Origin: Bdellovibrionales bacterium
Lineage (GTDB): Bacteria > Bdellovibrionota > Bdellovibrionia > Bdellovibrionales > DASUEL01
Direction: 5' to 3'
NCBI GenBank assembly: GCA_050250255.1
Contig: JBFWOZ010000008.1
Location: 1 to 64,000, forward strand
DNA length: 64,000 nt
The position numbers and the translations under genes are program-made. The notes under the pieces were generated by a model, which saw only the letters and a list, made by a program, of their open reading frames with translations, did no database searches and had not been told where the DNA came from. Of the stretch, positions 18,785 through 36,626 are shown piece by piece (position 1 is the first letter of the stretch; every line of letters starts with the position of its first letter).

Positions 18785-18800
18785 CGGCATGGCGCTTGCC
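18785..18800 (+). promoter_or_regulatory. Putative sigma54 promoter of the RAYT gene
   Basis: CGGCATGGCGCTTGCC, a close match to TGGCACG-N4-TTGC, about 13 nt before ATG 18813. Confidence 0.55.
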
Positions 18801-18812
18801 TATCCAACTTGG

Positions 18813-19412: not shown

Positions 19413-19477
19413 CGCTTGTAGTCCCAAAAGTGTGTCCGTACCTTGACACCCCCAGGAACTTGCGATTTCTCATCAGC

Positions 19478-20992: not shown

Positions 20993-21553
20993 CTATTCAC
21001 GTACTAGCCAAAAGACACCTGAGTCGCTTTTTCCACGCCCCCAACCTTTGCAATTTCTTTCAGACGGTCGAGAGACCATTCGTCGCACAATTTTTCCATT
21101 CTCCGACACTTGCTTAACAAAAAACCGATTACAACTACGTGTCGCAAACCAATGCACAGCATATTCACCGGAAGTGAGGCGAAATACCTCTCCATGCCTC
21201 CTCGCTTTCTGATCTACAGAAAAGGAACCTGCATAGCGTCCAGGTCCACAAAAATCAGATTCATACTGAACCTCACACATCTCGATCTGAATGGCTCCCC
21301 TCAACGACCCAGACCTCTGTGTCGTTCCACGTGCCACATAGTTGATATTGGTACAACCAAGATCTAAACATTCTCCACCACGACTTCCTTCTTGAAATGG
21401 TTTTTGAATATCTATGACACCTCCGCGACCACCCTGCATACGCACGATGTATTCTTCCTCTGTGATAAACTCACTTTCTTCTTGTGTCCAGCCAACGCTG
21501 CCTACGAGAAGGATTAGAGCAAAGACCATGTTTTTCTTTTTCGAGAGTTTCAT
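20993..21553 (-). CDS. Secreted hypothetical protein, coupled to the upstream TIGR02147 gene
   Basis: MKLSKKKNMVFALILLVGSVGW signal; 6 Cys; RBS lies inside the upstream gene end; 1-nt gap. Confidence 0.7.
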   Translation of the reverse strand: MKLSKKKNMVFALILLVGSVGWTQEESEFITEEEYIVRMQGGRGGVIDIQKPFQEGSRGGECLDLGCTNINYVARGTTQRSGSLRGAIQIEMCEVQYESDFCGPGRYAGSFSVDQKARRHGEVFRLTSGEYAVHWFATRSCNRFFVKQVSENGKIVRRMVSRPSERNCKGWGRGKSDSGVFWLVRE

Positions 21554-21554
21554 T

Positions 21555-22370
21555 TTATTCCCTTTCTTTTGTAAGATTAAAAACCTGTACGGATGCACAG
21601 TAGACATTTTTTTTATTTTTTGAACGTTTGGAGAGCGCTACCATTTTCTTAAAAAAGGATTCCATAATTTGCGACGCCTCTTGAAGTTGATCTTGAGAAA
21701 TCGTGAGCATTTCTGTTCCAATTAACTTTTCTTGAGGTGTTTGCGTTTCAATACTATCCATCGCTAGCTCTAGAAGCTGACGATGGTACTTTCGAATCGC
21801 TGTATCTTTTGAGTTGGATTGGATGATCAAATCACCTTGAACGCGCCTGAAAATTTTAGGATTTTTTTCATCTTGCTCCAGGAGTTCCAATTGTATAAGT
21901 CGATTGATCGCAGCCTGAACTTCAAATTTACTGAGCTTGAGCCTTTTAGAAATCGCATTGACGTTGAAATCAAAACCGCGAAGCTCTGTCATCATCAAAA
22001 TACAATAGTGATACCAATCCGAGATGATTTTAAAATGTTCAAGACTTAAATCTTTCACATCTGTCTTAGGGCTAAAATGATTGAGCTGCTCAATAAGACG
22101 TTCCTTGAGTTCGAAACTCTTAGCACCCTCCAGTTGCACTAGAAGGTAAAAATAAGCCGTGTTCGTCTCATCCAATCCCAGCTTGTTCGCGACATGTATG
22201 CTTAACTCAGAAGATAGATTTTTCTTTGCAGAAAGAACTTCGGAGAGGGTGGCTGGCGAAACGCCCAAGTGTTTGGCAAAAGCGCGCAGAGAGTAGGAAC
22301 GGTTTTTAGTGATCCGTTCTGCCAGGACGGCTTTTAAATAATTTCTGTAACTTGTATGCGCTAAAATCAT
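21555..22370 (-). CDS. TIGR02147 family protein (XRE-like HTH + DUF4423)
   Basis: NRSYSLRAFAKHLGVSPATLSEVL, FKIISDWYHYCIL, IRKYHRQLL, VYCASVQVFNLT. Confidence 0.88.
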   Translation of the reverse strand: MILAHTSYRNYLKAVLAERITKNRSYSLRAFAKHLGVSPATLSEVLSAKKNLSSELSIHVANKLGLDETNTAYFYLLVQLEGAKSFELKERLIEQLNHFSPKTDVKDLSLEHFKIISDWYHYCILMMTELRGFDFNVNAISKRLKLSKFEVQAAINRLIQLELLEQDEKNPKIFRRVQGDLIIQSNSKDTAIRKYHRQLLELAMDSIETQTPQEKLIGTEMLTISQDQLQEASQIMESFFKKMVALSKRSKNKKNVYCASVQVFNLTKERE

Positions 22371-22415
22371 TACGGACTACTTAGTACAAATAGTCCGCAC
22401 AAGCTACTGACGAGC

Positions 22416-22448
22416 GAACATTGTGTTCTTTAATAGCGAACAGTCTGT
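22416..22448. promoter_or_regulatory. Candidate operator upstream of TIGR02147 #1
   Basis: GAACA-TTG-TGTTC (22416-22428) and a second ACA-N3-TGT site GAACA-GTC-TGT 22 bp away. Confidence 0.5.
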
Positions 22449-22481
22449 AAAAAGGAAAAGCTTGTCGAAGAACTTCTCTCC

Positions 22482-22940
22482 TTATGGCGTAATTTTCCCC
22501 TGAGCCACACCTTCAAAGGCCAATGACCACTGACATCCAAGGTCCGTCGGAAAACAGCGGTAAAGCCCAGAGGCCCCCTCGTAAACAGAGGGTTGCGTGG
22601 GAAACTGAGGTATTTCAAAATGAAAAACATGAGCCGTCTTCCGGTCTAAATACGCTAAGGCTCGCATTTTCCATTTATTACTTTTACGCTCCCAAGTTAT
22701 TTTCAGTGTCTGTGCATACTCCTCACTTTTCTCTGGACCTTTTTCAAGGACATCCACAATTCCCTGATAAACCAGTTCATCGGCTTGCGCCCGCTCCAAG
22801 CTTAAAGAGCCTTTAAACTGAAAAACAATTTTTAACCTTGAGAAGTTCGATTGACCTTCGAAATGAATGGTTCTCGGAGCAGACTGAGCCAAGGTAAAGT
22901 AAAAAGAAATGAACGAGAAAAATAGAATTTTAAGCTTCAT
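22482..22940 (-). CDS. Secreted hypothetical protein
   Basis: Signal peptide MKLKILFFSFISFYFTLAQS; AAGGGG RBS. Confidence 0.7.
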   Translation of the reverse strand: MKLKILFFSFISFYFTLAQSAPRTIHFEGQSNFSRLKIVFQFKGSLSLERAQADELVYQGIVDVLEKGPEKSEEYAQTLKITWERKSNKWKMRALAYLDRKTAHVFHFEIPQFPTQPSVYEGASGLYRCFPTDLGCQWSLAFEGVAQGKITP

Positions 22941-23044
22941 ACGTCCCCCTTAATGAATTCACAGGCTAGGTGGTCTACTTTATAGCTGTCAATAGAATGA
23001 ACCCTACCCATCATTAAAAGTGTTCCTGAATCGTAAACACCCTT

Positions 23045-23260
23045 ATGGGAAGTGTTCTGAAAAAGTCTGAGGTGACTCAAGAGAAAAAAACCGACATTTT
23101 TCAAAAAACAGGACACGTGATTCAAGAAACGACCAATCAGGTTTCGCAAACGCTTTCCGAAACCAGAGCTCTTCGTGGTGGGGCTAACTATTATCTTCTC
23201 GCCAGCTACTCTCTTATTGATTTGATTATCCCCATTAAATGCGGGGGATGGCCCACGTAA
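23045..23260 (+). pseudogene. Probable fragment of a truncated gene
   Basis: Natural-looking protein ending YSLIDLIIP, then running into the convergent gene (overlap 23235-23260). Confidence 0.35.
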
Positions 23261-23822
23261 GATAGCTAAGCCCCATCATTCCATGAAGCCAAGTGAAGAC
23301 GACACCCTGATGTGTTGGTTCATCGAGAGCACCACTCACAACTCCGTAAGGATACCAATAGTCGGCAAATACCTTTAGGCCAAGGTGACGCGCATACTTC
23401 CAATTCAAAATGTTATTAAAATCCCACTGGTCCGGGTGTTGGTATTGAAGTAGTTGCGAGAATCGTTCAAATATTTGTGGGATTTCTAAAAAAGTGATCG
23501 TAAGAAGAAATAAGAAAATGTTCTTTGTATCTTGCCTGCGGAGCTCTTCGTCGGGGAATTTATATTTTTTCAAAAGGCCATAGCCGTAACCCGCAAAAGC
23601 CCATAGAAGGACGATCAACGCAAAATAGAAAATCTCTGAACGTTTAGGGTAATGAGTGTAGCCCGTCACATACACACGACGTATTTCAAAAAGTGGAATT
23701 AGAAGAAGCGCGTAAAAGAGAAGGGCTTTGGTGTTAAATTCTGGCAGCTGCAAGAAGACCGATAAGGCCACGTGCGCAAGAACGAGAATCCCCACTACCA
23801 GAGTCAAACGTGAACGATTCAT
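23235..23822 (-). CDS. Multi-pass membrane protein, probably C-terminally truncated (GT-C-like)
   Basis: Several hydrophobic helices plus FADYWYPYG loop; ends abruptly; next to glycan genes. Confidence 0.55.
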   Translation of the reverse strand: MNRSRLTLVVGILVLAHVALSVFLQLPEFNTKALLFYALLLIPLFEIRRVYVTGYTHYPKRSEIFYFALIVLLWAFAGYGYGLLKKYKFPDEELRRQDTKNIFLFLLTITFLEIPQIFERFSQLLQYQHPDQWDFNNILNWKYARHLGLKVFADYWYPYGVVSGALDEPTHQGVVFTWLHGMMGLSYLTWAIPRI

Positions 23823-23879
23823 TTTGCATTCACCCACTTTCCTGCTAAACCATTACTATAACCTGAAGCGGTAAAAAAT

Positions 23880-24767
23880 ATGGAATTAAATCATTCAAAC
23901 GTCTGCACAGTTTGTCAAAAAACTCATAAAAAAATCTTCAACTATCAAGGTTATGAGTATTTCCGCTGCGACGAGTGTCTCCATGTAACGACTCTTCCCT
24001 ACCCGACCTCTCAAGCCATCAACGAACACTATGCCAAACAGTTTCAATCTGGAAACTACAACATCGCTCATAAAAATAAGGCCGGTCGCACGGCTCCTTT
24101 TCAACAATATATTTCTTTATTGAATGAGTGGTTTTCTCAAAACTCTCAAGAGAGCTTGAAAAATAAACGAGTGCTCGATATTGGCTGTTTCACTGGTGAA
24201 CTTCTCATCGAATTGGAAAAAGCGGGTGCCCAAGTCACAGGCATTGAACTTCAGACAGAAGCCGCAAAGATTGCACAAGACCAAGTGTCAGGTAAAGTCT
24301 TTAACTCATCTATCTTTGATGTGGATCTTGAATCAGGATCTTTTGATGTGGTGGTTCTCTCGGGCGTGATCGAACACGTCACCGATCCAGGAACACTCAT
24401 AAAAAAATCTGTGGAATTTTTGAAGCCTAATGGCCTACTTTTAATCCAAACACCTAACAGCGAATCATGGCTTGCGAAAACGTTTGGAAAATACTGGCCA
24501 CCTTACCAACCGGTAGAGCATATCCATCTCTTTAGTCACGAAAGCCTTCAGCGCATCATGAAGCAGCATGGCTGTACAGAAGTCCATTTTCAAAATCACT
24601 GGAAAAAACTTCCGATCGAATACGTCTACAATATGTTCGCAACGTTTGGACCTGAGTTTCATAAGCTCTTAACACCCGCCTACAACGTGTGCCCAAGCTT
24701 TATCCGTAAACGCTCTCTCCCCTTTTACGGCGGCGAGATGCTCACGCTTTATCAGCGATCAACGTAA
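23880..24767 (+). CDS. Class I SAM-dependent methyltransferase with N-terminal Zn ribbon (glycan-cluster type)
   Basis: CTVC...CDEC, VLDIGCFTG, FDVVVLSGVIEHV, LKPNG, QTPN. Confidence 0.9.
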   Translation: MELNHSNVCTVCQKTHKKIFNYQGYEYFRCDECLHVTTLPYPTSQAINEHYAKQFQSGNYNIAHKNKAGRTAPFQQYISLLNEWFSQNSQESLKNKRVLDIGCFTGELLIELEKAGAQVTGIELQTEAAKIAQDQVSGKVFNSSIFDVDLESGSFDVVVLSGVIEHVTDPGTLIKKSVEFLKPNGLLLIQTPNSESWLAKTFGKYWPPYQPVEHIHLFSHESLQRIMKQHGCTEVHFQNHWKKLPIEYVYNMFATFGPEFHKLLTPAYNVCPSFIRKRSLPFYGGEMLTLYQRST

Positions 24768-25820
24768 AAATTCGCCACTATCGCCCGATTGTTGATTCAT
24801 CAAAAGCTTATTATCGAATAGGTATTTATAAAGTGTTGGCTGATCCATCAGATCATCTTTTGAGCTGTATTCACCATCCAGAACCGCAGTTTTATTCTCT
24901 TTTACAAGCTCCGGCAGCATTGGCTGAATGGCGTAGTGATCTTTTGAGAGATAGGTACGGTTGGCTTCTTCGTCAGAAACCATAATTTCGTGAGTCTTTT
25001 CTCCTGGGCGAATGCCCGTCACCTCAACACTGATTTTACGATCTTCGATGAGCGCTTTTGCAAGCGTCATCATGCTTGTTGCTGGCACTTTTGGAACGAA
25101 AGTCTCTCCCGGCTTTGCACGCTCAATGGCACTTAAAACCGTATCGACCGCGCGATCAAGCGGGAGTAAAAATCTCGTCATTTGCTCGGTCGTGACAGTG
25201 ACAGGACCGCCGTTTTTAATTTGTTCATGAAAGAGCGGGATGACCGAGCCGCGACTGGCAAGAACATTTCCGTATCTCACGCAGACAAAACGAGTTTTCG
25301 GAAAGGTGACGTTAGCTGCGATAAAAATACGCTCTTGCATCGCCTTGCTCATTCCCATCACGTTCACGGGCTTACAAGCTTTATCCGTAGAGACCCCTAC
25401 GACCACTTCCACAGGAAAATTATGTTCGCGAACCCCGCGCACGATGTTTTCAGCACCGATAACGTTCGTACTAAAGGCCTCAAAAGGAAAATATTCGCAA
25501 GACGGTACTTGTTTGAGAGCTGCCGCGTTCACCACGATATCGGCTGTTCTTAACACGTTCACGACCGATGCGTAGTCGCGAACATCGCCAATACGAAATT
25601 CTAAAGTTTTACTGAAGTTGTGATAGATCACTTCTTCTGTGGGATTTTTCTTTTGAAGATACTCAAGACGCATGAAGTGTTGCTTTGCTTCATCGCGAGA
25701 AAAAATAATGAGTTTTTTCGGTGTTCCGCATTCGCCTGATAAAATCCGACGGGTTAACACTTTCCCGAGAGACCCTGTGCCTCCGGTGATAACGATTGTT
25801 TTGTTAGAAAATAAATCCAT
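24759..25820 (-). CDS. UDP-GlcNAc 4,6-dehydratase/5-epimerase (FnlA/WbjB/CapE-like)
   Basis: ITGGTGSLG, FSRDEAKQ, AAALKQVPSCE, STDKA..PVNVMGMSK, RYGNVLASRGSVIP, GIRPGEK. Confidence 0.9.
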   Translation of the reverse strand: MDLFSNKTIVITGGTGSLGKVLTRRILSGECGTPKKLIIFSRDEAKQHFMRLEYLQKKNPTEEVIYHNFSKTLEFRIGDVRDYASVVNVLRTADIVVNAAALKQVPSCEYFPFEAFSTNVIGAENIVRGVREHNFPVEVVVGVSTDKACKPVNVMGMSKAMQERIFIAANVTFPKTRFVCVRYGNVLASRGSVIPLFHEQIKNGGPVTVTTEQMTRFLLPLDRAVDTVLSAIERAKPGETFVPKVPATSMMTLAKALIEDRKISVEVTGIRPGEKTHEIMVSDEEANRTYLSKDHYAIQPMLPELVKENKTAVLDGEYSSKDDLMDQPTLYKYLFDNKLLMNQQSGDSGEFLR

Positions 25821-25827
25821 ACACCCT

Positions 25828-26685
25828 CTACTTCTTATAAAGTGAAGAATTGATATAGTACTCGTGCATTTTTTGAATCATCACATCCCACGACTCCGGC
25901 TTATACCCTGTCTGTGCTTGAAACTTTTCCGAGTTCAAACCGCGATTGAGTTTTGCTACGTCGTTGGGAATGATTTCAATTTTTTTACCATAAACATGAG
26001 CCACTTTTTTTAAGAGATCATATTTTGAAATTTCAAAACTCGAAAGATGATAAATACCCATAAGATGGCTCTTCAGAATGTGATGTCTTAAGATTTCCGA
26101 GACAATGATTGTCGGAAGCCCGCTGTATAGCACTTGGCGAAAGCCCGTGCAGCTCTCTTCTTGTTTTAAAAACCATTCGAGAAGATGGTGAGAAGTTCCC
26201 AGCTCGTGGCCGATAATAGAAAGTCGGAGGTTCAAGGCATGGTCCCCCTCCACTTCACCCAACAACTTCGTTAACCCATTGAGATCACGTCCATCAGGAA
26301 TATCATCTTCTTTACGATCGTTGCGATTGCCCGAAAATACACCGTCAGAACTAAAATGAATCAAACGAGTTTTATGTTTCAAACACAAATCCGAAAGCTT
26401 GTGAGGCCAGAGCGAATTCGCTTCGATGAATTGGTCTTTGTGGGTCTGCTCACTACGACGAATCAGGCTAATGCAATTCATCACTACGTCCGGTCGAAGT
26501 TTCAAAATCGTCTGATCCACTTTTTCGAGCTGCTCAGGCTTTAATCCCTCAATGCTGATACCGCCGATAAGCTTTGGATCTTGGCTCGCAGAACGAACTG
26601 TGCCGTAGACCTCAAAGTCACGGCCAAGATCATGAAACAATGTGTGCCCGAGCATGCCGCTCGCACCAAAAATCAATATCTTCAA
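25828..26685 (-). CDS. RmlD-like NDP-4-keto-6-deoxy sugar reductase (QnlA/WbvR-like)
   Basis: GASGMLG, IHFSSDGVFSG, TKLLGE, SIIGHEL...LLEWFL. Confidence 0.85.
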   Translation of the reverse strand: MKILIFGASGMLGHTLFHDLGRDFEVYGTVRSASQDPKLIGGISIEGLKPEQLEKVDQTILKLRPDVVMNCISLIRRSEQTHKDQFIEANSLWPHKLSDLCLKHKTRLIHFSSDGVFSGNRNDRKEDDIPDGRDLNGLTKLLGEVEGDHALNLRLSIIGHELGTSHHLLEWFLKQEESCTGFRQVLYSGLPTIIVSEILRHHILKSHLMGIYHLSSFEISKYDLLKKVAHVYGKKIEIIPNDVAKLNRGLNSEKFQAQTGYKPESWDVMIQKMHEYYINSSLYKK

Positions 26686-26696
26686 AACTCAAATCC

Positions 26697-27779
26697 TTAG
26701 AAAAAATTTGTGATGTTAGATCTCACGGCATTCACAATCACATTCGACGGCTTAAAGTCCTTACAGAGGTCAAATCTCGCACACCAAGTTTGTCGCGTGA
26801 TGGTTTCTACCGATTCAACGAGGGAACGTGGGTCAGTACCCGCCACGATGTGCGCTCCCGCCTCAAGAGTTTCGTATCGTTCTGTTGTTTTACGTACACT
26901 CACCACTGGTTTTTTAAAATAAATGCCTTCTTCAGGCGTTGAGCCCGAATCTCCGATGAGGCAAAAGGCATGTTTGTTCAAACAATTGAAGTCGTAAAAA
27001 CCAAGTGGCGCGTGAATTGTGATTCCTTTAGGGACTTGCACTTGATGAATTTTGCTCTGAGTTCGTGGATGCATGAGATAAATCACTTTTTTGCCGTACT
27101 TCTCGTAGAGCGCGCCAAGACCATTGAGAATTTTCTGTAATTCTTCTGGGTTGTCGACATTTTCTCTACGGTGAATCGTCACGCTGAAATATTCACCGGG
27201 CTTCACATCGAAATATTTAAGTATTTCACTTTTATCAATTTCGTTTTCGAAGGCTTCCATGACTTCAAAAACGGGATTCCCGGTACAAATAATTTTGGAA
27301 GGGTGGATGTTCTCGCGAACCAAATTTTCTCGGTGATACGGATAGTATGGGAGAAGAATATCCGACATATGATCAATCAGAACGCGATTTCTCTGCTCAG
27401 GCATTCTCTTATCGAACGCACGAAGACCTGCTTCAAGGTGGAAAATCTTAATCCCACGATTGGCCGCCGGCAAAACCGAAAGTCCGCTAAAAGTATCTCC
27501 AAGGATCAATAGAGCATCGGGCTTTACCTTCTCAAAAAGTTCATCGGATTTTCTCACGACATCAGCCACTTCTTTACCGTAAGATGTCACATCAATTCCC
27601 AAATAATGATCGGGTTCACGCAGTTTTAAATCGCGAAAGAAAAAGTCCTTCAGTTCTTTTGTATAATTTTGCCCGGTATGCACAAAAATATGTTCAAAGT
27701 TCGACTCTTCAAGAAGCTTCATTGTGGACCACATCTTGATCATTTCAGGACGCGTGCCCATGATGGACATGACTTTCAT
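26697..27779 (-). CDS. Non-hydrolysing UDP-N-acetylhexosamine 2-epimerase (WbjD/FnlC/QnlB-like)
   Basis: GTRPEMIK, HTGQNY, LGDT, HLEAGLR..D.RMPE.RNR, HRRENVD, DSG, TER. Confidence 0.92.
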   Translation of the reverse strand: MKVMSIMGTRPEMIKMWSTMKLLEESNFEHIFVHTGQNYTKELKDFFFRDLKLREPDHYLGIDVTSYGKEVADVVRKSDELFEKVKPDALLILGDTFSGLSVLPAANRGIKIFHLEAGLRAFDKRMPEQRNRVLIDHMSDILLPYYPYHRENLVRENIHPSKIICTGNPVFEVMEAFENEIDKSEILKYFDVKPGEYFSVTIHRRENVDNPEELQKILNGLGALYEKYGKKVIYLMHPRTQSKIHQVQVPKGITIHAPLGFYDFNCLNKHAFCLIGDSGSTPEEGIYFKKPVVSVRKTTERYETLEAGAHIVAGTDPRSLVESVETITRQTWCARFDLCKDFKPSNVIVNAVRSNITNFF

Positions 27780-27910
27780 TTCTTAATTCTCCCTATAACC
27801 AACTTTTATGGTCGTTCTTGCGAGAAGACCATGCGTAATACCTTGCGTTATCCCTATGAAACTTCCTTCCTTTCTCCTCGCATGGAAGTACAGCTCAAGC
27901 TTGCAAAGAT

Positions 27911-28708
27911 GTGGAAAATCGCCTAATTCTCATTCAGAATAAAACAGTGCAGTTCCCGTCGTCGAAAGGTCATTTTTTGAAATTTGCCGTCGCTCTTCCC
28001 ATGTTTAATGAAGCCGAATGTGCGGAGCGCTCTGTTCGACGAATCAACGAAGAATTGAACACCATTTCCCACGAAAGCTTCATTCTTACGATCAACGACG
28101 GCAGTAAAGACAAAACTCTCGAGATTCTTCAATCTATCAGAGATGTTCCACGCTTAGTCGTTGTGAATCACGAAGTGAACAAAGGTTACGGTGGCGCGAT
28201 TTCTACCGCTTATAAAACGGCCAGCGAAAAAGGCATTGATTACGTACTGTTTATGGATGCGGATCTTACTCAAGATCCTAAGTATCTCCATGCCTTCGTA
28301 CCTAAAATGCTCGCAGGACACGTGATGATCAAAGGTTCACGATACGTTCGCGGCGGTGGAATGCAGGGTGTACCTCTTTATCGTGTTGCTGTTTCCAAAG
28401 TGGGTAATATTATTTCTTCAATTTTGTTTCGACATAAAATCAAAGATTACACCAATGGGTTTCGTGCCGTTCGAGTTGATATGGCCAAAAAACTTCAATT
28501 GAAGGAACGTGGGTTTGCGGTTCTTCTCGAAGAGATTTATCAACTTTCTCAGTGGACCTCCGATTTTTCCGAGGTGCCTTACATTCTCACCTTCCGTCAA
28601 GAAGGTGATGGAGTTTCGACTTTCACTTACACCCCAAAAGTCTTTATGAATTATTTAAAATACCCTGTACGTAAAGCTCTCAAGGTTCCAACCAAGGAGT
28701 CTCCATGA
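27911..28708 (+). CDS. GT2 glycosyltransferase, DPM1/polyprenol-phosphate type
   Basis: PMFNEA, NDGSKDKT, NKGYGGA, MDADL, GSRYV.GG, DYTNGFRA; start position uncertain. Confidence 0.9.
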   Translation: MENRLILIQNKTVQFPSSKGHFLKFAVALPMFNEAECAERSVRRINEELNTISHESFILTINDGSKDKTLEILQSIRDVPRLVVVNHEVNKGYGGAISTAYKTASEKGIDYVLFMDADLTQDPKYLHAFVPKMLAGHVMIKGSRYVRGGGMQGVPLYRVAVSKVGNIISSILFRHKIKDYTNGFRAVRVDMAKKLQLKERGFAVLLEEIYQLSQWTSDFSEVPYILTFRQEGDGVSTFTYTPKVFMNYLKYPVRKALKVPTKESP

Positions 28709-29904
28709 GAACCACATGTCGATCTTGTGGCGATGCAAAATCCGAAATGTTTTTAGACTTAGGTCCGCAACCTCTCGCTGGAGGCTTTCTACCTCCCACG
28801 ACAGAAGCCAAAGAGCTTGAAAAAATGCATCCGCTCCCTATTCACTTCTGTCATTCCTGTGGCTTGGTTCAGACCTTTTACGTCGTGCCAGCTGAAACTC
28901 TTTTTACAAACTACTGTTTTTCCTCCAGCACGGTTCCTTATCTCGTTCAACATTTTACCGACTACGCCAAGTGGCTCAAAGCAGAGTTGAAAGCCAATTC
29001 TGTTTTGGAATTTGGATGTAACGATGGAATTTTGCTCAAGCCTCTTGAAGCCATTGGCGTAAAAGCGGTGGGTATCGACATCTCCGAAAATATCACAGAA
29101 GTGGCGAGAGAGAAGGGCCTCAAAGTCAAAACAGGCTTCTTTAATCCCGCTTCTGCAGATCAGCTGAAAGATGAATATGGCGCTTTTGATGTTGTTACGG
29201 GCAGCAACTGTTTTCCTCACAACGATGAGCCCGAGCATATTTTAAAAGCTGCAAAAAAAGTTTTAAAACCAGACGGACATCTCTGTTTAGAAATTATGTA
29301 CGCGGGAGACCTGCTGGAAAAATTGCAGTGGGATTCCATGTACCATGAGCATTTAAATTACTTCAGCTTGAAGACTCTCGACATCTTACTTCGTCGTCAT
29401 GGGTTTCATACGGTACACGTGGAAAGACTTCCGATGCACGCAGGGACTCTCCGGCTCGTGGCTGCAGTGAACCCTTCCGAGACTCCACGCACGAGTGTCG
29501 CCGAACTCATGAAATATGAAGAAGCCACCGGGCTTAATCGCTTTGAAACTTGGAAACGTTTTGCACACGATGTTTTACGACAGATCAAAGTCACAAAAGA
29601 AGTTTTGGGTGCCTTGAGCACACGTCACCGTATTTGGGGTTACGGAGCCGCCGGCCGTGCGACAATGTGGGTGAATGCTTGCCAGATGAATTATTTAGAA
29701 TTCATGGTGGACTCTTCACCTTTTCGAAGTGGCAGACTGATGCCAGGTACTCATACGCCAATTGTATTTCCCGAAGCTTTAAGAACAAAACCACCTGATT
29801 ATATTTTTGTTCCAGCTTGGAATTACATCGACGAAATCCGCAGAAAAGAAGCCTGGTTTCAAGGCATCTGGTGTATTCCAGTACCCTTTCTTAAATTTTT
29901 ATAA
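28705..29904 (+). CDS. NDP-sugar C-methyltransferase-like protein
   Basis: CRSC...CHSCGLVQ, EFGCNDG, YHEHLNYFS, HAGTLR, GYGAAGR, PGTHTPI, AWNY. Confidence 0.9.
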   Translation: MRTTCRSCGDAKSEMFLDLGPQPLAGGFLPPTTEAKELEKMHPLPIHFCHSCGLVQTFYVVPAETLFTNYCFSSSTVPYLVQHFTDYAKWLKAELKANSVLEFGCNDGILLKPLEAIGVKAVGIDISENITEVAREKGLKVKTGFFNPASADQLKDEYGAFDVVTGSNCFPHNDEPEHILKAAKKVLKPDGHLCLEIMYAGDLLEKLQWDSMYHEHLNYFSLKTLDILLRRHGFHTVHVERLPMHAGTLRLVAAVNPSETPRTSVAELMKYEEATGLNRFETWKRFAHDVLRQIKVTKEVLGALSTRHRIWGYGAAGRATMWVNACQMNYLEFMVDSSPFRSGRLMPGTHTPIVFPEALRTKPPDYIFVPAWNYIDEIRRKEAWFQGIWCIPVPFLKFL

Positions 29905-29921
29905 TTAGGAGAATCGCTCCT

Positions 29922-31970
29922 ATGAGTTATTTTATTATTCTTCTTCTTTCTTTATTCAGTTCGCTAGCGAGCGCCAAAACCGTTCGTTACGAACTTCAGA
30001 TCACTAGACAGCCTGTGAATTTAAGTGGCCACAAGACTGTGGATTTTTCACTTATGGTGAATCACTCCATTCCCGCACCCACTCTTGAGTTCACCGAAGG
30101 GGATGAGGCTGAGATCGTTGTGAAAAACGGTCTTGATAACGAAGAAGTTTCTCTCCATTGGCATGGAATCCTTCTCCCTCCAGAAATGGATGGCGTAGCC
30201 TACGTCAACACGCCCCCCATTCATCCCGGCCAGTCACACACCTTTCGTTTTAAAATTCGTCAGCATGGAACCTACTGGTACCACTCACACACAATGGTGC
30301 AGGAACAAAAAGGCGTTTATGGTGCCTTTATTATTCATCCCAAAAATAAAACGATTCGAGCCGATAAAGAAGTTGTGGCCGTCTTAAGCGATTGGTCCGA
30401 TGAGAATGCCGATAATATCATTCGTAACCTGCGAAAAGATGGAGAGTACTATGCTTATAAAAAGGGAACTGTTCGTTCGTGGGCGGGCGCCCTTCAAGCC
30501 GGAAAATTCGGAACTTTTCTTGGTAATGAATGGACCCGTATGGGCGGAATGGATCTCTCCGACGTGGGTTATGATGCTTTTTTGATCAATGGAAAACGAG
30601 AGTTGCAACTTGTCGATGCGAAGGCCGGTGAAAAAATTCGACTTCGCATTATCAATGCGGCAGCATCGACTTACTTTTATGTGTCTTTAGGAAATCTTCC
30701 GATGAAAGTGATTTCCGCCGACGGTATCGATATTGAGCCAAAGACCGTTAAACAGGCATTGATGGGAATGGCCGAGACTCTTGATGTGTTATTCGAAGTT
30801 CCTCAAAATAAAAATTTTGAATTACGTGCGACCGCGCAAGATGTGAGTGGCTTAGCCTCCGGGTGGATTGGGTATGGCGAGAAAGTCGCCGCCCCGGCTA
30901 TAGCACCACCCGATCTTTACGCTAGCATGGAGCACGATGCACACGCAGATCACACCGCAAAACCGGAGAACTCTCACGAGCATCACGGAAATCATCATGG
31001 GAACCACAACGCTTCCCCGACCGTGGTAGAGCAACTCACTGTCGACGAGATAAGAGCCCAAGAAAAAACTCTCTTTCCCGCGAAAATCCCTCGCTACGAC
31101 GTGAAACTCGTTTTAGGTGGCGACATGGAGCGATACGTTTGGCACATCAACGGGAAAGCCATTCATGAAGATCGTACTATCGCGATTAACGAAGGTGATG
31201 TCGTACGATTCACTTTTGAAAACGAAACAATGATGCATCACCCGATGCATCTTCATGGACATTTTTTTCGAGTGCTTAATCAATATGACGATTATTCGCC
31301 ACTCAAACACACTGTCGACGTTCCTCCTCATGGAAAAAGAACGATCGAATTTTTGGCCAACGAACCAGGCGAGTGGATGCTTCATTGCCACAATCTGTAT
31401 CATATGAAAACCGGTATGGCCCGAGTGATTCAGTACTCTTCTTTCAAACCGAAAGCTGAGATCACTCATCACCAAAAACACGATCCGCATCTGCATGACC
31501 ATGTTTATTTTGATGGTTCCGCAAAAGCCGCTACAAATTTGGGGGAAGCAAAATTACGATTGTCACAAACATGGCATAATTTTGAGGCCCGCATTGAAGC
31601 TCGAAAAGATGATCATTGGGAAACGGAAGGGGATCTTCTCTACCGTCGGTGGTTTGGACAATACTTTAATGTTATCGCAGGTGGTACAAGCAGGCATCAT
31701 GAACAGCGTGGGATGCTAGGCGCGGGTTATCTCTTACCAATGCTCATTGAAACACAGATTTTGATCGACCATAAAGGAAAACTCCGAGTGGATTTGGAAA
31801 AATCCTTTCAATGGACAAAATATGTTTTTAGCGACGTAGAAGTAAGACTGCGGCAAGAGGAAGCGGCCGAATGGACCACATCTTTGATGTACGCACGTTC
31901 TTGGGCCTGGAGCGCCGGGTTTTTCTTTACAGGAAAAACACTCGGCGCCGGATTACATTATAAATTCTAA
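29922..31970 (+). CDS. Multicopper oxidase (CopA/PcoA-like) with C-terminal beta-barrel-like extension
   Basis: HWHG, WYHSH, HPMHLHGH, HCHNLYHM; His-rich linker; amphipathic beta C-terminus ending GLHYKF. Confidence 0.92.
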   Translation: MSYFIILLLSLFSSLASAKTVRYELQITRQPVNLSGHKTVDFSLMVNHSIPAPTLEFTEGDEAEIVVKNGLDNEEVSLHWHGILLPPEMDGVAYVNTPPIHPGQSHTFRFKIRQHGTYWYHSHTMVQEQKGVYGAFIIHPKNKTIRADKEVVAVLSDWSDENADNIIRNLRKDGEYYAYKKGTVRSWAGALQAGKFGTFLGNEWTRMGGMDLSDVGYDAFLINGKRELQLVDAKAGEKIRLRIINAAASTYFYVSLGNLPMKVISADGIDIEPKTVKQALMGMAETLDVLFEVPQNKNFELRATAQDVSGLASGWIGYGEKVAAPAIAPPDLYASMEHDAHADHTAKPENSHEHHGNHHGNHNASPTVVEQLTVDEIRAQEKTLFPAKIPRYDVKLVLGGDMERYVWHINGKAIHEDRTIAINEGDVVRFTFENETMMHHPMHLHGHFFRVLNQYDDYSPLKHTVDVPPHGKRTIEFLANEPGEWMLHCHNLYHMKTGMARVIQYSSFKPKAEITHHQKHDPHLHDHVYFDGSAKAATNLGEAKLRLSQTWHNFEARIEARKDDHWETEGDLLYRRWFGQYFNVIAGGTSRHHEQRGMLGAGYLLPMLIETQILIDHKGKLRVDLEKSFQWTKYVFSDVEVRLRQEEAAEWTTSLMYARSWAWSAGFFFTGKTLGAGLHYKF

Positions 31971-31983
31971 AATGACCTCATGA

Positions 31984-32481
31984 TTAATTGACGTCCGTAA
32001 TTGAACACATTTCGCGTTCAGTGTAGTAACCGGGATGACAATAATATCCGTTCCACCAGTAACCATTTCGGCCTCTATAATCCCAGCCATCCCATAGCCC
32101 TGGGCAAAATCCTGGGTTATAATCAACGATAACTCTGCATTGTACACCCACAGTGGCAATAAGGCTTGAATCAACCTGTTGACGAGGCTTTTCGCCATAC
32201 ACTTCAACATCATAATGGCGCTGAACACCATCTGCCGCGACCAACTTTTCTTCGGCATCAAACTTTTTAAATTTGACGGCCTTGGCATGAATGGCTCTCA
32301 TCATTTCTTCCGTTCCATAACGTTCAAGAGCACGACCTTGCAAATGATCTTGATAGTCTGCAAAATCTAGATCCTGAGCCGCCTCAACAAGATCTTCTGC
32401 CATATCCTCAGCTGCCGAATCCGCAAAGGCCATAGGGCCTCCGAAAACAAGCGCTACTGTTAACAAAATTTTTTTCAACAT
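31984..32481 (-). CDS. Secreted hypothetical protein
   Basis: Signal peptide MLKKILLTVALVFGGPMAFA; AAGGAGG RBS; G/Y/W-rich loop among Cys residues. Confidence 0.75.
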   Translation of the reverse strand: MLKKILLTVALVFGGPMAFADSAAEDMAEDLVEAAQDLDFADYQDHLQGRALERYGTEEMMRAIHAKAVKFKKFDAEEKLVAADGVQRHYDVEVYGEKPRQQVDSSLIATVGVQCRVIVDYNPGFCPGLWDGWDYRGRNGYWWNGYYCHPGYYTEREMCSITDVN

Positions 32482-32515
32482 AATTTCCTCCTTCAGTGAG
32501 TTTCTCAATGAAATT

Positions 32516-32532
32516 TGCAAAGAGTTTGCCTA
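32516..32532 (-). promoter_or_regulatory. Putative sigma54 promoter
   Basis: Minus strand reads TAGGCAAACTCTTTGCA (GG-N10-GC) upstream of 32481. Confidence 0.5.
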
Positions 32533-32653
32533 CTCTAGGCTTGCAAACAAATTGCATATGACCAACAAATTGAATTTGGTAGCACTTAGGAAAAAGTTTG
32601 GGTCAATGTGGTACTTATTATAGTGATTTATGCCCCACAAAAGGAGATTGAAA

Positions 32654-33772
32654 ATGAAATGGTTACTCCTCTCTTTAGCATTCATAGCTCTTGCACAGGG
32701 TCAAAAAACCACAACCTATGTTTCCGAAAAGGAAAAATTTCAGGTCGAGATTCTCACCCAACAAAAAGATGTTGTTTGGGGCTTCGACTTTATTTCTGAA
32801 AATCAGATGATTTTTAGCGAGCGTAGCGGCGCCCTCCGACTTTTGAATATCTCCCAGAAGGCTGTCACCGATCTCAAAGGTGCACCTCCAGCTTGGGTGA
32901 ATGGCCAAGGTGGTCTTCTCGACGTACGCGTACATCCTTCTAGCAAAAACAAAATTTATCTCACCTACTCAGAGCCTGTAAATGATGGTGCCACCACCGC
33001 TTGGGGTATTGGGATTTTGGTCGGAGATCAGCTTCGAGATTTTAAAAAAATGTTTTCGGCCCACAAACCAAATAACAACGAGATTCATTTTGGTTCTCGG
33101 CTCGAATTCGATGGCCAAGGACACATTTTCGTGAGCGTGGGTGATCGCAACGAACGAAATCAATCTCAAGATCTCTCTTACCATATGGGGAAAGTACTTC
33201 GTTTTAACGAAGATGGCTCCATTCCTAAAGACAACTTCTTTTTACAAACGAAAAACGCCAAACCAGAGGTTTGGAGTTACGGTCATCGTAATCCCCAAGG
33301 CCTTGCTTGGGACGCACAAAAAGAAACTCTCTGGCTCGCCGAAATGGGCCCACGCGGCGGCGACGAAATCAACATTGTTCGCCCCGGCGCAAACTACGGT
33401 TGGCCGGTTATTACATACGGCCGTGAATATTATGGTCCTAAAATAGGAACGACTTCTAAAGAGGGTATGGAACAACCGGTGGCGTATTGGGTTCCATCGA
33501 TTTCTCCTTCGGCAATCGCGGTTTATAACGGAACAAAGTTTTTAAACTGGAAAGGAAATCTTTTTTTAGCCAACTTAAGCTCACAGCATATCCGACGTTT
33601 AGAAATTCAAAACAAGAAGGTCATTCATCAAGAAGAACTTCTCAAGGCGTTAAACCTGCGCTTTCGCAACATCCGCGCAGGTCCCGATGGTCTCCTCTAT
33701 TTCTCAACTGACGATGGGAAGATCGGAAGACTGATTCCTATTAATGATAAGAAGGTGGCTCCCGCACCTTAG
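32654..33772 (+). CDS. PQQ-dependent soluble aldose sugar dehydrogenase (YliI/Asd-like)
   Basis: GQGGLLDV, HFGSRL, SYGHRNPQGL, EMGPRGGDEIN, NYGWP, WVPSISPS. Confidence 0.93.
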   Translation: MKWLLLSLAFIALAQGQKTTTYVSEKEKFQVEILTQQKDVVWGFDFISENQMIFSERSGALRLLNISQKAVTDLKGAPPAWVNGQGGLLDVRVHPSSKNKIYLTYSEPVNDGATTAWGIGILVGDQLRDFKKMFSAHKPNNNEIHFGSRLEFDGQGHIFVSVGDRNERNQSQDLSYHMGKVLRFNEDGSIPKDNFFLQTKNAKPEVWSYGHRNPQGLAWDAQKETLWLAEMGPRGGDEINIVRPGANYGWPVITYGREYYGPKIGTTSKEGMEQPVAYWVPSISPSAIAVYNGTKFLNWKGNLFLANLSSQHIRRLEIQNKKVIHQEELLKALNLRFRNIRAGPDGLLYFSTDDGKIGRLIPINDKKVAPAP

Positions 33773-33773
33773 C

Positions 33774-34415
33774 CTACTCCAAACGACGGATCAGGCTCGC
33801 TAGAACTCCCAAGATTTTAAACTCGGCATCTTGCTCAACTTCAATGACTTGATAATTGGGGTTGGCAGGGTGAAGCTCCACCCTCTCCTTTGTTCTATAA
33901 AATCGTTTGATCGTCGCTTCGTCACCTACGAGAGCTACCACCGTTTGCCCATTCATCGCTGTATGCTGGCGCTTAATGATCACGAGATCTCCATCCATGA
34001 TGCAATCATCGATCATAGAATCACCCTTCACTCGAAGCGCAAAGTAATCCGTGTTCGCTGTAATAAGGCCTCGCGGAATGTCCACGTATTCACGATTTTG
34101 TACGGCTTCTGTGAGGCGCCCTGCCGCCACCAAACCTTCGAGAGGTACCGAAACCACTTCGCTCTCTTGATAACTGGCTGGAACCAAAGTGCGTTTTTTA
34201 TTTGTGCCGACTTGAGCTTTTAAAAAACCCTTCTTCACTAGCTGTTGGACGAACTGTTGAACTGACGAGATCGATTTGTAATCAAACTTTTCCCTGATTT
34301 CCTCGTAGGTTGGAGAAAAGCCATTTTGCTCGGTGTAATCCACGATGAATTCGTAGACTTTCATTTCCTTAGGAGTCTGTTCGTTTAGGCGGGGATTTAA
34401 ATGCTCTATGATCAT
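33774..34415 (-). CDS. lexA: LexA transcriptional repressor
   Basis: wHTH (SPTYEEI...LVKKGF); cleavage site VAAG; catalytic GDSM and ATIKRF. Confidence 0.93.
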   Translation of the reverse strand: MIIEHLNPRLNEQTPKEMKVYEFIVDYTEQNGFSPTYEEIREKFDYKSISSVQQFVQQLVKKGFLKAQVGTNKKRTLVPASYQESEVVSVPLEGLVAAGRLTEAVQNREYVDIPRGLITANTDYFALRVKGDSMIDDCIMDGDLVIIKRQHTAMNGQTVVALVGDEATIKRFYRTKERVELHPANPNYQVIEVEQDAEFKILGVLASLIRRLE

Positions 34416-34448
34416 AAGGACCTCGGCGGTTAATGGTTATGTACTACT

Positions 34449-34488
34449 TACGTATCTACAAACGATATACGTAGGTTTTACGTAAAAC
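34449..34488. promoter_or_regulatory. Candidate LexA operators
   Basis: TACGTA at 34449, 34468 and 34479; perfect palindrome GTTTTACGTAAAAC at 34475-34488. Confidence 0.55.
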
Positions 34489-34547
34489 AATTGACCGAAG
34501 GTCTAGATTTGGAACGCGATTAGTTAGAACCCATCTCATAAGGCGAT

Positions 34548-34581
34548 AAAAAAAAGACCAGAGCGTTTTACCCTGGTCTTT
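34548..34581 (-). terminator. Rho-independent terminator
   Basis: AAAGACCAG-N11-CTGGTCTTT hairpin with a T run on the minus strand, downstream of 34635..35750. Confidence 0.75.
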
Positions 34582-34634
34582 GAAGTCATCTTGTTTCATT
34601 TGATATCCAACCGATATTACAACCCTGGCGTTGG

Positions 34635-35750
34635 TTACTGTAAGCGAAAGATATAGTTATTGAATCCAAATTTTGGATTCAACCTGTAATCGTAATCGAG
34701 ACGTGGCTCGAAGGTTTTTGTCCCAACTAGACGCCCATATTGTCTCGCATAGATGGTCACTGTGACTGAATAAACATCACGACACCAAATGTTGGTAAAT
34801 ATCTCACCTCCATTGAGGAGTTCGTTCGGATACCTTACCGACTGCACATGGACAGGGTCTGTCAGTTGGCCACTCTTTACAAATCGATTCGTGGATGACG
34901 TAATCGCATCACGCTGCACGGAGTTGGGTAGTTTCATAAGATAAACACCAAGTGTACATTCGGCAGAACTAAGAGCACTTAGAATTTTAAATTCTGCACT
35001 GATATCCAGGGACGAAACCGCCTGCGTAAGCGGGAAAACTTGATAGTTAGGCCATAAATTAGATTTTAAACTCAAAAGCTCTTCATAGAATTTCGTCTTA
35101 AGTTTATTGAGATCTTGAGGACTCGAAGTGAACAACAAAGACGTGATTTCTCTAACCAAATCGGAATTTTCAATGGAAGCGTTCCGTTTTTTTGCTATTC
35201 TATAAGCCGCCTCATGAAAGTAAAATCCTGCAAAATCAAGTTGTGTTAAAACTCCTCTAATCTCACCATCTACCATCACTAAACCGTTAGTTTGAAAATT
35301 TGCGAATTGTTCAAATTCACAACCTCTCTTTAATCCGATACGAGGATTAAAGTCATTTGTTTTTGCAGGGCCTGCTGACGGTGATTTAAATGTTCGTGTA
35401 TTAAGTTTGATATGGGCAATCTCAGCCAAAATTTCTTGATAGACTCCTTTGTACTCAAGATAGTCTCTATCGGTGGGTTGGATTCTTTTGAGTCCCTCAG
35501 CTAAAATTTCCTCCCAAGTTGGTTTTAGATTATTGAACTCCATACCTTCTGGGTAATCGAGATAGACAGGTTCTCTAGCCTCTGCAAGGTCTAAAAGCTT
35601 AGCCGACACAATACTTCCACCTGCATCACGGCAGACAACGGAAATCCCACCTCCGCCTTCTTTGGTTGCAAACGCTGCGGGGCTCGCAACTGTTAAACAC
35701 AGCAATACGGAAAATAAATGCGTTTCCATTTTTTTAGTAAATTGTTTCAT
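34635..35750 (-). CDS. Secreted hypothetical protein (GGG-VVC-LLDLxE...HE pattern), coupled to TIGR02147 #2
   Basis: Signal peptide ending PAAFA; EGGGGISVVCRD, LLDLAEA, CEFEQFA, FHEAAY; 4-nt overlap with upstream gene. Confidence 0.75.
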   Translation of the reverse strand: MKQFTKKMETHLFSVLLCLTVASPAAFATKEGGGGISVVCRDAGGSIVSAKLLDLAEAREPVYLDYPEGMEFNNLKPTWEEILAEGLKRIQPTDRDYLEYKGVYQEILAEIAHIKLNTRTFKSPSAGPAKTNDFNPRIGLKRGCEFEQFANFQTNGLVMVDGEIRGVLTQLDFAGFYFHEAAYRIAKKRNASIENSDLVREITSLLFTSSPQDLNKLKTKFYEELLSLKSNLWPNYQVFPLTQAVSSLDISAEFKILSALSSAECTLGVYLMKLPNSVQRDAITSSTNRFVKSGQLTDPVHVQSVRYPNELLNGGEIFTNIWCRDVYSVTVTIYARQYGRLVGTKTFEPRLDYDYRLNPKFGFNNYIFRLQ

Positions 35751-36553
35751 AGGGGCTCCTTTTTACTTGTATTCGTTAATGGGAAAAAACTAATTTGAAT
35801 TTGGTAGACTTCATCTGACTCTTCTTTATTGTAAAATTCTTGAGCAAAACTTCTTCGAAATTCGGTAATTCTTTTTTTGGCTCGCTCCATATCTTGAGAT
35901 TTAAAAGCGAAAGTGGCTGAAGTATGATTTCGTTGCAATAACGGAACTTCCTGAACTGCCTTTTTGGAAATTTCAAGAAGTTGACATTGGTATTTTCGTG
36001 CAGCGCTTGAAGTCATATCGTTCGTAAGATGAGAGAGATTTCCATTTTCAGAAATGTCCTTCCACGTTCCATCGGGCATTTCTTGTAGCAAATCCAATCT
36101 CATGAGACGCTCTACTGCGATCTTCGCTTCGGTCTTCGTGATCCCTAAACGTCGACTAACCCATTGGGCATTGGGTTCGAAACTTTTAAGATAAGTTAAT
36201 TCTAAAATTGCGTAGTGATACCAATCGGAGATCACAGAAAAGGCATCCAAAGTTTGGTGCTGAAATGGAACGATACTGCCTTTGGTTATTTCGTTATTTG
36301 GAATTTTATTGAGTTCATGAACAGAGAGGCCAAGTACACTTCCTAAACGCAACTTCATTTTTTCTGTCAAAGGCCGCTTGCTACTTAATATTTGTGATAA
36401 AGCAGAAGGTTCAATGTTTAATGATCGCGCAAAGGCTCTCAACGAATAATTGGGGTTAGAACGGCATCGGCTCACGAGCTCTTCTTGCAAAAGCCGACGA
36501 AAAGACAAGGCTTCAGAAGATTTTAATTTTTTACTCTTTACGCTGACTTCCAT
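35747..36553 (-). CDS. TIGR02147 family protein (XRE-like HTH + DUF4423)
   Basis: NPNYSLRAFARSLNIEPSALSQIL, FSVISDWYHYAILEL, VYQIQISFFPLT. Confidence 0.88.
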   Translation of the reverse strand: MEVSVKSKKLKSSEALSFRRLLQEELVSRCRSNPNYSLRAFARSLNIEPSALSQILSSKRPLTEKMKLRLGSVLGLSVHELNKIPNNEITKGSIVPFQHQTLDAFSVISDWYHYAILELTYLKSFEPNAQWVSRRLGITKTEAKIAVERLMRLDLLQEMPDGTWKDISENGNLSHLTNDMTSSAARKYQCQLLEISKKAVQEVPLLQRNHTSATFAFKSQDMERAKKRITEFRRSFAQEFYNKEESDEVYQIQISFFPLTNTSKKEPL

Positions 36554-36592
36554 GGGTGGAATCTACTGAAAGTTCAGAAAACTCGCCACAGG

Positions 36593-36626
36593 TTTTGACA
36601 CAACATGTGTCAAAATGACTGACACA
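36593..36626. promoter_or_regulatory. Candidate operator upstream of TIGR02147 #2
   Basis: Perfect TTTTGACACA-ACA-TGTGTCAAAA (36593-36615) plus half-site TGACACA (36620-36626). Confidence 0.65.

Follow-up and report, generated by a model that had tools for sequence, protein, structure and literature searches.

A 64,000-nucleotide stretch from a Bdellovibrionales bacterium (assembly GCA_050250255.1, contig JBFWOZ010000008.1, positions 1 to 64,000 of the forward strand; the window) carries two two-gene modules, in each of which a regulator of the TIGR02147/DUF4423 family is coupled to the gene of a secreted protein, hereafter the cargo. We propose that this uncharacterised family probably consists of one-component, peptide-sensing autoregulators. 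Each copy would bind a palindromic operator of its own upstream of its gene, and would be controlled by a short glycine-rich tag that stands behind the signal peptide of its cargo. The cognate operator, together with a residue-to-base code by which the regulator would recognise it, is well supported by comparison among relatives, and control of the regulator by the tag is probable. On balance we favour the reading as a whole, a tag-controlled, self-activating cognate regulator for each secreted protein.

The positions of the two modules, the coupling of their genes, the palindromes 52 and 51 nt from the start codons and the extra half-sites 22-24 bp further out, all of which had been described in the original prediction, were confirmed in the sequence, as was the leaderless-like start of regulator 2, which has no ribosome-binding site. 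The parts are the following.

21555..22370, minus strand: regulator 1, TIGR02147/DUF4423 (hidden Markov model (HMM) matches and AlphaFold model).
20993..21553, minus strand: cargo 1, 186 amino acids (aa), signal-peptide-like N-terminus, ATG at 21553 (sequence and library scans).
22416..22428, no strand: operator 1, GAACA-caa-TGTTC, centred at 22422, 52 nt 5' of the regulator 1 ATG.
22436..22442, minus strand: distal third half-site TGTTCGC of module 1, 22 bp upstream of the proximal half-site.
35747..36553, minus strand: regulator 2, TIGR02147/DUF4423 (HMM matches).
34635..35750, minus strand: cargo 2, 371 aa, composed of signal peptide, tag, HE-xx-Y domain and a variable C-terminal part (sequence, alignment and model).
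36593..36615, no strand: operator 2, TTTTGACACA-tgt-TGTGTCAAAA, centred at 36604, 51 nt 5' of the regulator 2 ATG.
36620..36626, minus strand: distal third half-site TGTGTCA of module 2, 24 bp upstream of the proximal half-site.
36560..36565, minus strand: -10-like hexamer TAGATT, 6 nt 5' of the regulator 2 ATG; no Shine-Dalgarno sequence, leaderless-type start.

Regulator 1 is separated from cargo 1 by a 1-nt gap, and regulator 2 overlaps cargo 2 by ATGA. Both regulators are well above the cut-offs of TIGR02147 (143.6 and 105.1 bits for regulators 1 and 2, respectively; cut-off 50) and of PF14394 (119.6 and 132.3 bits; cut-off 30), with weak HTH_3/XRE/HigA-like matches at the N-terminus. TIGR02147 had been called an expanded paralogous family; the genome of this window (G000; L-numbers denote loci of relatives) holds 24 near-full paralogues and one fragment (25 matches), and family matches occur in 142 of the 151 genomes of the class that were searched, with up to dozens of copies per genome.

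G000 and 240 loci of relatives yielded a training set of 265 distinct family open reading frames (ORFs), 258 of them usable and 209 below 60% identity. Start codons were picked from a -10-like hexamer plus codon, blind to palindromes, and the criterion for a palindrome was symmetry in at least 7 of 8 base pairs at -49 to -54 from the start codon. Such a palindrome was found in 62 of the 209 dereplicated family genes versus 13 of the 2138 other ORFs of G000, and the same test in ten other windows upstream of the genes gave 0-3 hits in 209, with the exception of -60 to -65 (22/209). This second peak is a pseudo-palindrome, formed by the upstream half and the distal third half-site; the latter lies roughly two turns of the helix further out and occurs in 61 of 108 operator-bearing genes. 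Even-spacer palindromes gave no peak at -52. In a first held-out set, comprising the 51 of 109 usable new genes that are below 60% identity to all earlier ones, the palindrome was at -52 in 22, in 0-1 elsewhere and in 8 at -60 to -65. The positional enrichment near -51 that had been anticipated was recovered in the training set and in this first held-out set. The full palindrome is common, not universal; many genes without it retain the upstream and distal halves alone, or have a 1-nt spacer. A common core, proposed as ACA-N3-TGT, does exist, but it is CA-N3-TG (near -52 in 77/209 family genes versus 52/2138 other ORFs): the third base of the half-site is variable and protein-coded, and ACA/TGT was rejected as an invariant. 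The anticipated paralogue specificity of the sites held throughout, the 11 well-formed operators of G000 having 11 distinct half-sites; for 8 of them the own site is the sole exact match in the genome.

Two side groups depart from this geometry. L106, L262, L366, L385, L387 and L393, which mostly have SPAQ-type helices, seem to use a 1-nt spacer, ACA-N-TGT, and in this subgroup the dimer geometry appears to differ. L159 and L168 lack the downstream half at -50, and a site-like full palindrome covers their -35 region, possibly a repressing variant.

The variable bases of the half-site follow the recognition helix of the adjacent regulator, as the original prediction had expected of the flanks. 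For base 3 the top mutual-information column is the first residue of the helix (z 13.5, 83 genes), with P/A/V specifying T, S/D specifying C, Q/Y specifying A and H specifying G; the sixth residue is the most informative one for base 5 (z 10.8, 83 genes), with E/D specifying C, R/K/H specifying G and Q/L specifying T. These pairings agree with standard side-chain/base chemistry. In the window, P39 and E44 of regulator 1 predict TGT.C (observed: TGTTC), and P49 and Q54 of regulator 2 predict TGT.T (observed: TGTGT). The code was frozen before it was tested on 25 held-out operators. Base 3 was predicted correctly in 24/24 upstream halves, including all seven predictions other than T, and in 19/24 downstream halves (permutation mean 14.6, p 0.0015); base 5 was right in 12/19 (p 0.01). 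A search of 69 held-out genes for the half-site predicted from the protein gave matches in 24, 15 and 19 of them at the three positions where it was expected, versus 7.8, 6.9 and 6.8 after swapping, with no excess in control windows, and the excess also held in the palindrome-poor second held-out set (36 genes of 88). With a tree built without the helix-turn-helix (HTH), independent pairs went the same way, among the results listed, in 4.4/5, 5.8/7 (p 0.03), 2.6/6 and 4.9/11 cases, and almost never the opposite way. Binding of each regulator to its own operator is, by this code, very probable.

The position of the operator relative to the promoter bears on the sign of regulation. Counted from the centre of the operator, positions +16 to +18 read T, T and G in 93, 74 and 72 of 108 genes, respectively, and neither the selection of starts nor that of palindromes had made use of this feature; TA follows the TTG after 17 bp, which is partly circular. 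With TTG at -36/-35, TA at -13/-12 and a Shine-Dalgarno-like word in only 3 of 90 operator-bearing genes, the arrangement is apparently a sigma-70-type promoter that starts approximately at the ATG, giving a leaderless mRNA. The operator lies in fixed phase 16 bp 5' of the TTG -35 box and not over it, which favours an activator, and own half-sites over the -35/-10 region showed no excess in held-out genes (13 versus 12.5 swapped). Activation rather than repression is therefore likely on the predicted promoter geometry. The proposed reading of each module as an autoregulatory switch is supported in so far as binding and autoregulation can be predicted from such patterns.

One module of G000 has kept the operator and lost the regulator. 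On contig C45 (minus strand, approximately 1371-1850; operator centre 1799, stub ATG 1748) a 22-codon regulator stub (MEVT..., compare MEVS... of regulator 2) is coupled through ATGA to the gene of an untagged secreted protein of 104 aa, and its promoter stands back to back with that of another family member. Compared with operator 2, 24 of 25 positions of the half-sites and 8/8 of the distal half-site are kept, and about half of the other promoter positions. The conservation of a site that lacks its own regulator suggests, as a single case, that it serves cargo expression in trans. Each regulator had been assigned one secreted cargo; a coupled cargo is indeed present in both modules, but regulator 2 appears to serve the regulator-less cargo on C45 as well. 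No further satellite promoter of G000 rose above background, and the operator-plus-promoter architecture was found only before family genes and this one derived stub (7/7 strict matches).

Beyond the original prediction, a likely input signal emerged from the cargos, in the form of a peptide tag that co-varies with the C-terminal domain of the regulator. A coupled ORF follows 103 of the 104 operator-bearing genes with enough downstream sequence, and 100 are signal-like by a crude rule; the figures for genes without a called operator are 126/145 coupled and 116/145 signal-like. Directly behind the predicted cleavage site, 123 of 216 signal-peptide cargos have the motif G-x-E-x-G-[N/G/H]-G-G, which stands on the exported side of the signal-peptidase site with its mode at residues 22-26. 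Synonymous codons in the tag are free, and an explanation at the RNA level was rejected for this reason. The cargos of the window were described as unrelated, and their bodies are (blastp best E 1.4); each nevertheless carries a glycine-rich, tag-like motif behind its signal peptide. As both miss the strict tag score, their tags were assigned by clade: RGG-type tags recur in the clade of regulator 1, which is without the Arg that pairs with the tag Glu, and [KR]EGGG tags occur on unrelated bodies in the clade of regulator 2.

21419..21442, minus strand: candidate tag RMQGGRGG of cargo 1 (from the sequence; tentative assignment).
21374..21397, minus strand: putative second tag copy FQEGSRGG of cargo 1 (from the sequence; tentative assignment).
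35646..35669, minus strand: peptide tag ATKEGGGG, cargo 2 residues 28-35, at the predicted signal-peptidase site (from the sequence; coil in the model).

Co-variation with average product correction placed the tag opposite a defined surface of the regulator. The top 13 of 8505 pairs of cargo position and regulator column all join tag positions -3, -2, -1 and +1 to ten DUF4423 columns, with a maximal z of 8.3 versus shuffled maxima of 4.2-5.2. One face of the first C-terminal helix accounts for five of the ten columns, and the spacing of several along one helix is i, i+4, i+7/8 and i+11. In regulator 2 the predicted tag-pocket residues are E118, H175, T181, A185, Y188, Q189, L192, R208, H210 and R233. 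Regulator I/V against tag V/T/I split the modules 35/2/3/83, and on the tree 7.1 of 9 independent pairs agreed with this split and none opposed it (p 0.016). Five tag rules were frozen, three of which were testable on 16 new pairs and two of these held: the I/V rule (8/0/1/7, p 0.0007) and the rule that pairs Arg with tag E/D (p 0.018). Direct binding of the tag by the DUF4423 domain is a likely explanation of these patterns.

Modelling of the complex is in line with this. Two copies of the L051 regulator domain with their own 32-residue tag segment scored 0.52 versus 0.02 for the best control, with contacts between runs agreeing to at least 38% and a partner predicted local distance difference test (pLDDT) score of at least 44. 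The support is weak, and the output specified no interface. Of 157 solved pairs, 116 pass the mark applied, as do 2 of 215 mismatched ones, but at scores of 0.60 or lower it is passed by only 18 of the 157 and by both of the mismatches. A positive call at this level is wrong more often than right, except where the pairing was already likely, and the run was made on the L051 pair, not on a pair of the window.

The bodies behind the tag are diverse. No Pfam or NCBIfam family was above cut-off for cargos 1 and 2 in library scans, and a Pfam scan found any match in only 8 of 68 cargos, none to a restriction-modification family. Behind the shared tag, the cargo bodies of L003, L325, L084, L258, L079 and L002 include FGE-sulfatase, Ig-like, ankyrin, MORN and matrixin-like domains, which suggests that cargo bodies arose by domain shuffling. 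A shared domain behind the tag with an invariant H-E, mostly as HExxY, is present in 92 of 184 cargos, cargo 2 but not cargo 1 among them. All of 62 aligned cargos keep the H and the E, the fifth residue of the motif is Y in 39/70 and H in 5/70, and HExxH occurs anywhere in 26 of 139 full cargos; cargo 2 has HEAAY and not the HExxH of zincins.

35202..35216, minus strand: HEAAY motif of cargo 2 (cargo alignment; zincin-like by motif only).

The model of cargo 2 has a pLDDT of 85, with the tag region as coil. Its fold search gave no match at E <= 0.001, and the best zincin match was selecase (E 0.35, probability 0.38); a zincin fold of the domain is thus weakly hinted at by the model.

In three modules the coupling is absent and the tag persists. 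The most distant paralogues of G000 (C24, C59 and C1) are uncoupled, and each faces a GG-tagged secreted gene on the other strand (512, 438 and 352 aa, respectively) across AT-rich intergenic DNA without a CA-N3-TG site. Genome-wide, G000 has 25 motif-bearing signal-peptide ORFs, of which 15 are coupled cargos and one faces a divergent paralogue; most of the remaining ones look like lipoproteins with Gly linkers.

The regulators of the window are 268-271 aa long and have three domains. In the AlphaFold model of regulator 1 (pLDDT 92.7) an XRE/HigA-like HTH (approximately residues 8-82) is followed by a winged HTH (approximately 105-180) and a putatively helix-strand-helix-strand C-terminal part; long helices span 190-209 and 226-249 of the monomer model, and DSSP assigns no strands in the C-terminal module. 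The fold search for regulator 1 returned no structure at E <= 0.001, HigA folds being among the matches listed, and 1uly (PH1932) was matched with probability 1.00 and E 0.17. Kfla_6221 (4g6q) is the structure that aligns with the DUF4423 part over the greatest length (152 aligned, residues 105-266; Z 7.9, root-mean-square deviation 5.4). The regulator thus resembles ArsR-like winged HTH proteins with a C-terminal dimerisation module (Kfla_6221, 4g6q; PH1932, 1uly/2cwe), a likeness in which a Z below 8 may reflect a merely common arrangement and from which the N-terminal XRE domain is left out. A profile search of solved structures matched the winged HTH only, and the ESM Atlas gave only leads below 0.9 (DUF6795, DUF6502) for residues 178-271.

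C proteins are small single-domain proteins. Those described (C.PvuII, C.AhdI and C.Esp1396I) have an XRE HTH, an operon in which their own gene comes first and overlaps the controlled gene, a leaderless mRNA and tandem upstream sites, of which the proximal one occludes the -35 box, 17-18 nt from the start codon (PMC2632904). The present modules share with them the type of HTH, the self-first operon overlapping a controlled gene and the tandem sites upstream, and their predicted transcript may be leaderless as well. In contrast to C proteins, these regulators are approximately 270 aa long with two more domains, the site is centred at -52, clear of the -35 box, the extra site is distal, and the downstream genes encode (tagged) signal-peptide proteins and not a restriction endonuclease or methyltransferase.

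RRNPP regulators have an N-terminal HTH and co-evolve with their peptides. PlcR-PapR, ComR-ComS and Rgg-SHP each pair an intracellular receptor with an adjacent gene for a secreted precursor that contains the short cognate peptide (PMC10075063). The family studied here adjoins a secreted-protein gene with a co-varying tag, which may play the part of such a peptide. Unlike RRNPP receptors, it combines a winged HTH with an alpha/beta module and has no tetratricopeptide repeat (TPR) domain (when 101 C-terminal domains were compared with Pfam, no TPR family was among the 25 commonest matches), its hosts are Gram-negative, and the peptide heads a protein of 100-800 aa and not a small propeptide. 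Cyanobacterial HetR (PMC4649674) begins with an HTH, continues with a middle domain and ends in an alpha-beta-alpha-beta module, and its ligand is ERGSGR. This peptide resembles the E-x-G-N-G-G tag, and the domain topologies are possibly alike; HetR is, unlike the many private copies found here, a single master regulator. HetR_C (PF18460) had no match in G000 at E <= 10, and HetR was absent among the fold matches listed, which are dominated by winged HTHs and barely test the C-terminal module.

The libraries attach no function, site or partner to TIGR02147 (Fsuc_second) or PF14394 (DUF4423). No literature on the function of the family was found in a search that left most subscription papers outside, the single mention being that of Bd3700 in a table of PMC12546842. 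Nothing in print was found on a paralogue-specific operator and peptide-tag system, and such a system would amount to a kind of peptide signalling not yet described. In Bdellovibrio HD100 two DUF4423 genes overlap their neighbour by 4 nt (Bd2625/Bd2624 and Bd3758/Bd3759). In the published data, the growth-phase column and no other marks Bd2625 and Bd2624 as expressed (the meaning of the column being taken from the legend), and Bd3758 and Bd3759 are not called expressed. The proteome table includes six DUF4423 proteins, in rows that are not assignable to operator or tag classes, and the start-site map covers attack-phase promoters only. Further sources cited are PMC12546842 with its supplements and PMC3627812 with its Table S1.

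In the mechanism that we propose, a regulator dimer would bind its own palindrome through the XRE helix and a second dimer would join at the distal half-site. The bound complex would recruit the polymerase to a leaderless two-gene transcript encoding regulator and cargo; the cargo would be exported, and its tag would dock in the DUF4423 domain and control the regulator. The tag, freed after export and re-imported as a short peptide, would act as a co-activator. A released co-activator peptide is favoured because the tag is on the exported side, is module-specific and survives the loss of translational coupling; that release and re-import turn the module up is nonetheless put forward tentatively, as one plausible route. 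The main alternative, inhibition or precursor sensing, in which the unexported precursor would bind in the cytoplasm as a brake, we regard as rather unlikely.

Several observations weigh against the proposed reading, in addition to the limits of the complex model. The -52 palindrome was present in only 3 of 36 genes of the second held-out set, and a full palindrome was called in 111 of 296 genes overall and in 4/45 of family f11. Predictions other than T were right in only 2/7 promoter-proximal halves of the held-out operators. The tree-aware test of the DNA code, with few pairs, gave p 0.03 for E/D specifying C alone and p 0.06-0.25 for the other three among the results listed. Of the 216 cargos, 93 have no called tag, and by the strict score the two cargos of the window are among them. 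The col134 rule did not hold on the 16 new pairs (p 0.67); three first-chosen binary tag traits gave p 1 in the tree tests, and of six traits chosen post hoc five lacked significance. In training genes for which no palindrome was called, half-sites over the promoter are slightly in excess (26 versus 19.6, p 0.046), and some of these genes may have a repressing site. A secreted tag must re-enter the cytoplasm, and the four family-5 solute-binding genes of G000 have counterparts in 11 of 14 control genomes. Binding, start site and sign, finally, are deduced from sequence patterns.

The same operator and tag could operate with the sign reversed, the regulator repressing, or activating and then being shut off, and the tag inhibiting DNA binding, possibly as an unexported precursor that would make an export-coupled brake or inducer. 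PatS6 (ERGSGR) binds the C-terminal alpha-beta-alpha-beta hood of HetR and releases HetR from DNA (PMC4649674), and tags such as GNERGNGG resemble PatS6. A self-activator needs a brake, translational coupling places the regulator beside the nascent cargo, and the extra half-sites over the promoter in some genes fit a repressor; the HD100 proteome table has Bd3758 and Bd2625 but not their neighbours Bd3759 and Bd2624, although cell proteomics may miss secreted proteins. The fixed 16-bp phasing to the -35 box without overlap, which favours contact with the polymerase, the tag of the divergent modules, kept without translational coupling, and its place on the exported side of the signal-peptidase site make this reversal unlikely. 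Alternatively, the regulator might read its own operator while the tag is a mere signal for envelope sorting, processing or modification that co-varies by co-inheritance. Once exported, the tag is in the periplasm; the genes of regulator and cargo pass on together; most of the tree-aware tag tests were not significant, and the complex model gives weak support. The co-variation is, however, limited to four tag positions and ten regulator columns, several of them on one helix, and shows complementarity of charge and shape (Arg with E/D; I/V with V/T/I), with two rules holding out of sample. Neither overall regulator identity nor cargo-body homology accounts for it: in a comparison of 134 modules, tags are more alike where pockets are more identical, with a beta of 0.41, compared with -0.015 for the rest of the regulator and 0.06 for the cargo body, the pocket columns having been selected on largely the same data and random 12-column sets having reached 0.26. 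That 15 of the 25 motif-bearing signal-peptide ORFs of G000 are coupled cargos, and that the satellite cargo on C45, which lacks a regulator of its own, is untagged, also argue against a sorting signal, which we consider improbable.

Site 1 resembles a GAAC-N-GTTC SOS-type box, and lexA lies at 33774-34415, behind cargo 2, so that the palindromes might be sites of one global regulator such as LexA, or else chance or terminator hairpins. Flanks that differ at every locus and follow the residues of the own helix largely refute a global-regulator site, which was rejected; with the fixed spacer and distance and an architecture confined to family genes and one derived stub (7/7 strict matches), explanations of this kind are very improbable.

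The remaining features of the window lie around the two modules.

22371..22399, minus strand: 13-pair hairpin that ends directly 5' of the regulator 1 ATG (from the sequence; tentative role).
34553..34581, minus strand: terminator-like 12-pair hairpin with a T-tail that ends the two-gene module 2 (from the sequence).

The -35 and -10 matches of regulator 1 are poor, and the hairpin at 22371-22399 covers that promoter region; it is possibly the terminator of the upstream gene (22482-22940), overlapping the predicted promoter. The lexA gene (TIGR00498 above cut-off, minus strand) follows directly behind the terminator of module 2. On the plus strand, the 207-aa ORF at 18789-19412 has an H-x-H-type motif (MDNHYHLL) and presumably resembles a REP-associated or IS200-type tyrosine transposase, and the 515-aa ORF at 19430-20977 looks, by reading of its sequence, like two cupin domains and a GNAT-type acetyltransferase.

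Peptide receptors that act inside the cell and stand beside the gene of a secreted precursor are familiar chiefly from the RRNPP systems of Firmicutes and from HetR-PatS. Their counterpart in Gram-negative predators, with the signal within full-size secreted proteins, would show one-by-one control of a large orphan secretome. Each copy of a family without an assigned function gains a predicted DNA site and a predicted peptide ligand, and the XRE helices would provide a clean natural residue-to-base code. If both the DNA site and the peptide can be read from the regulator sequence, the family could serve as a natural collection of switches, orthogonal to one another and inducible by peptides. 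With 20-50 copies, a genome would run as many largely private feedback channels, one per secreted protein. It is conceivable, if doubtful, that this is a new class of Gram-negative peptide signalling, that each protein of such a repertoire carries its own N-terminal reporter peptide, and that use or cutting outside the cell, possibly by the HE-xx-Y domain, frees the tag, which then turns on its private regulator; the predator would in that case amplify just those secreted proteins that meet a target.

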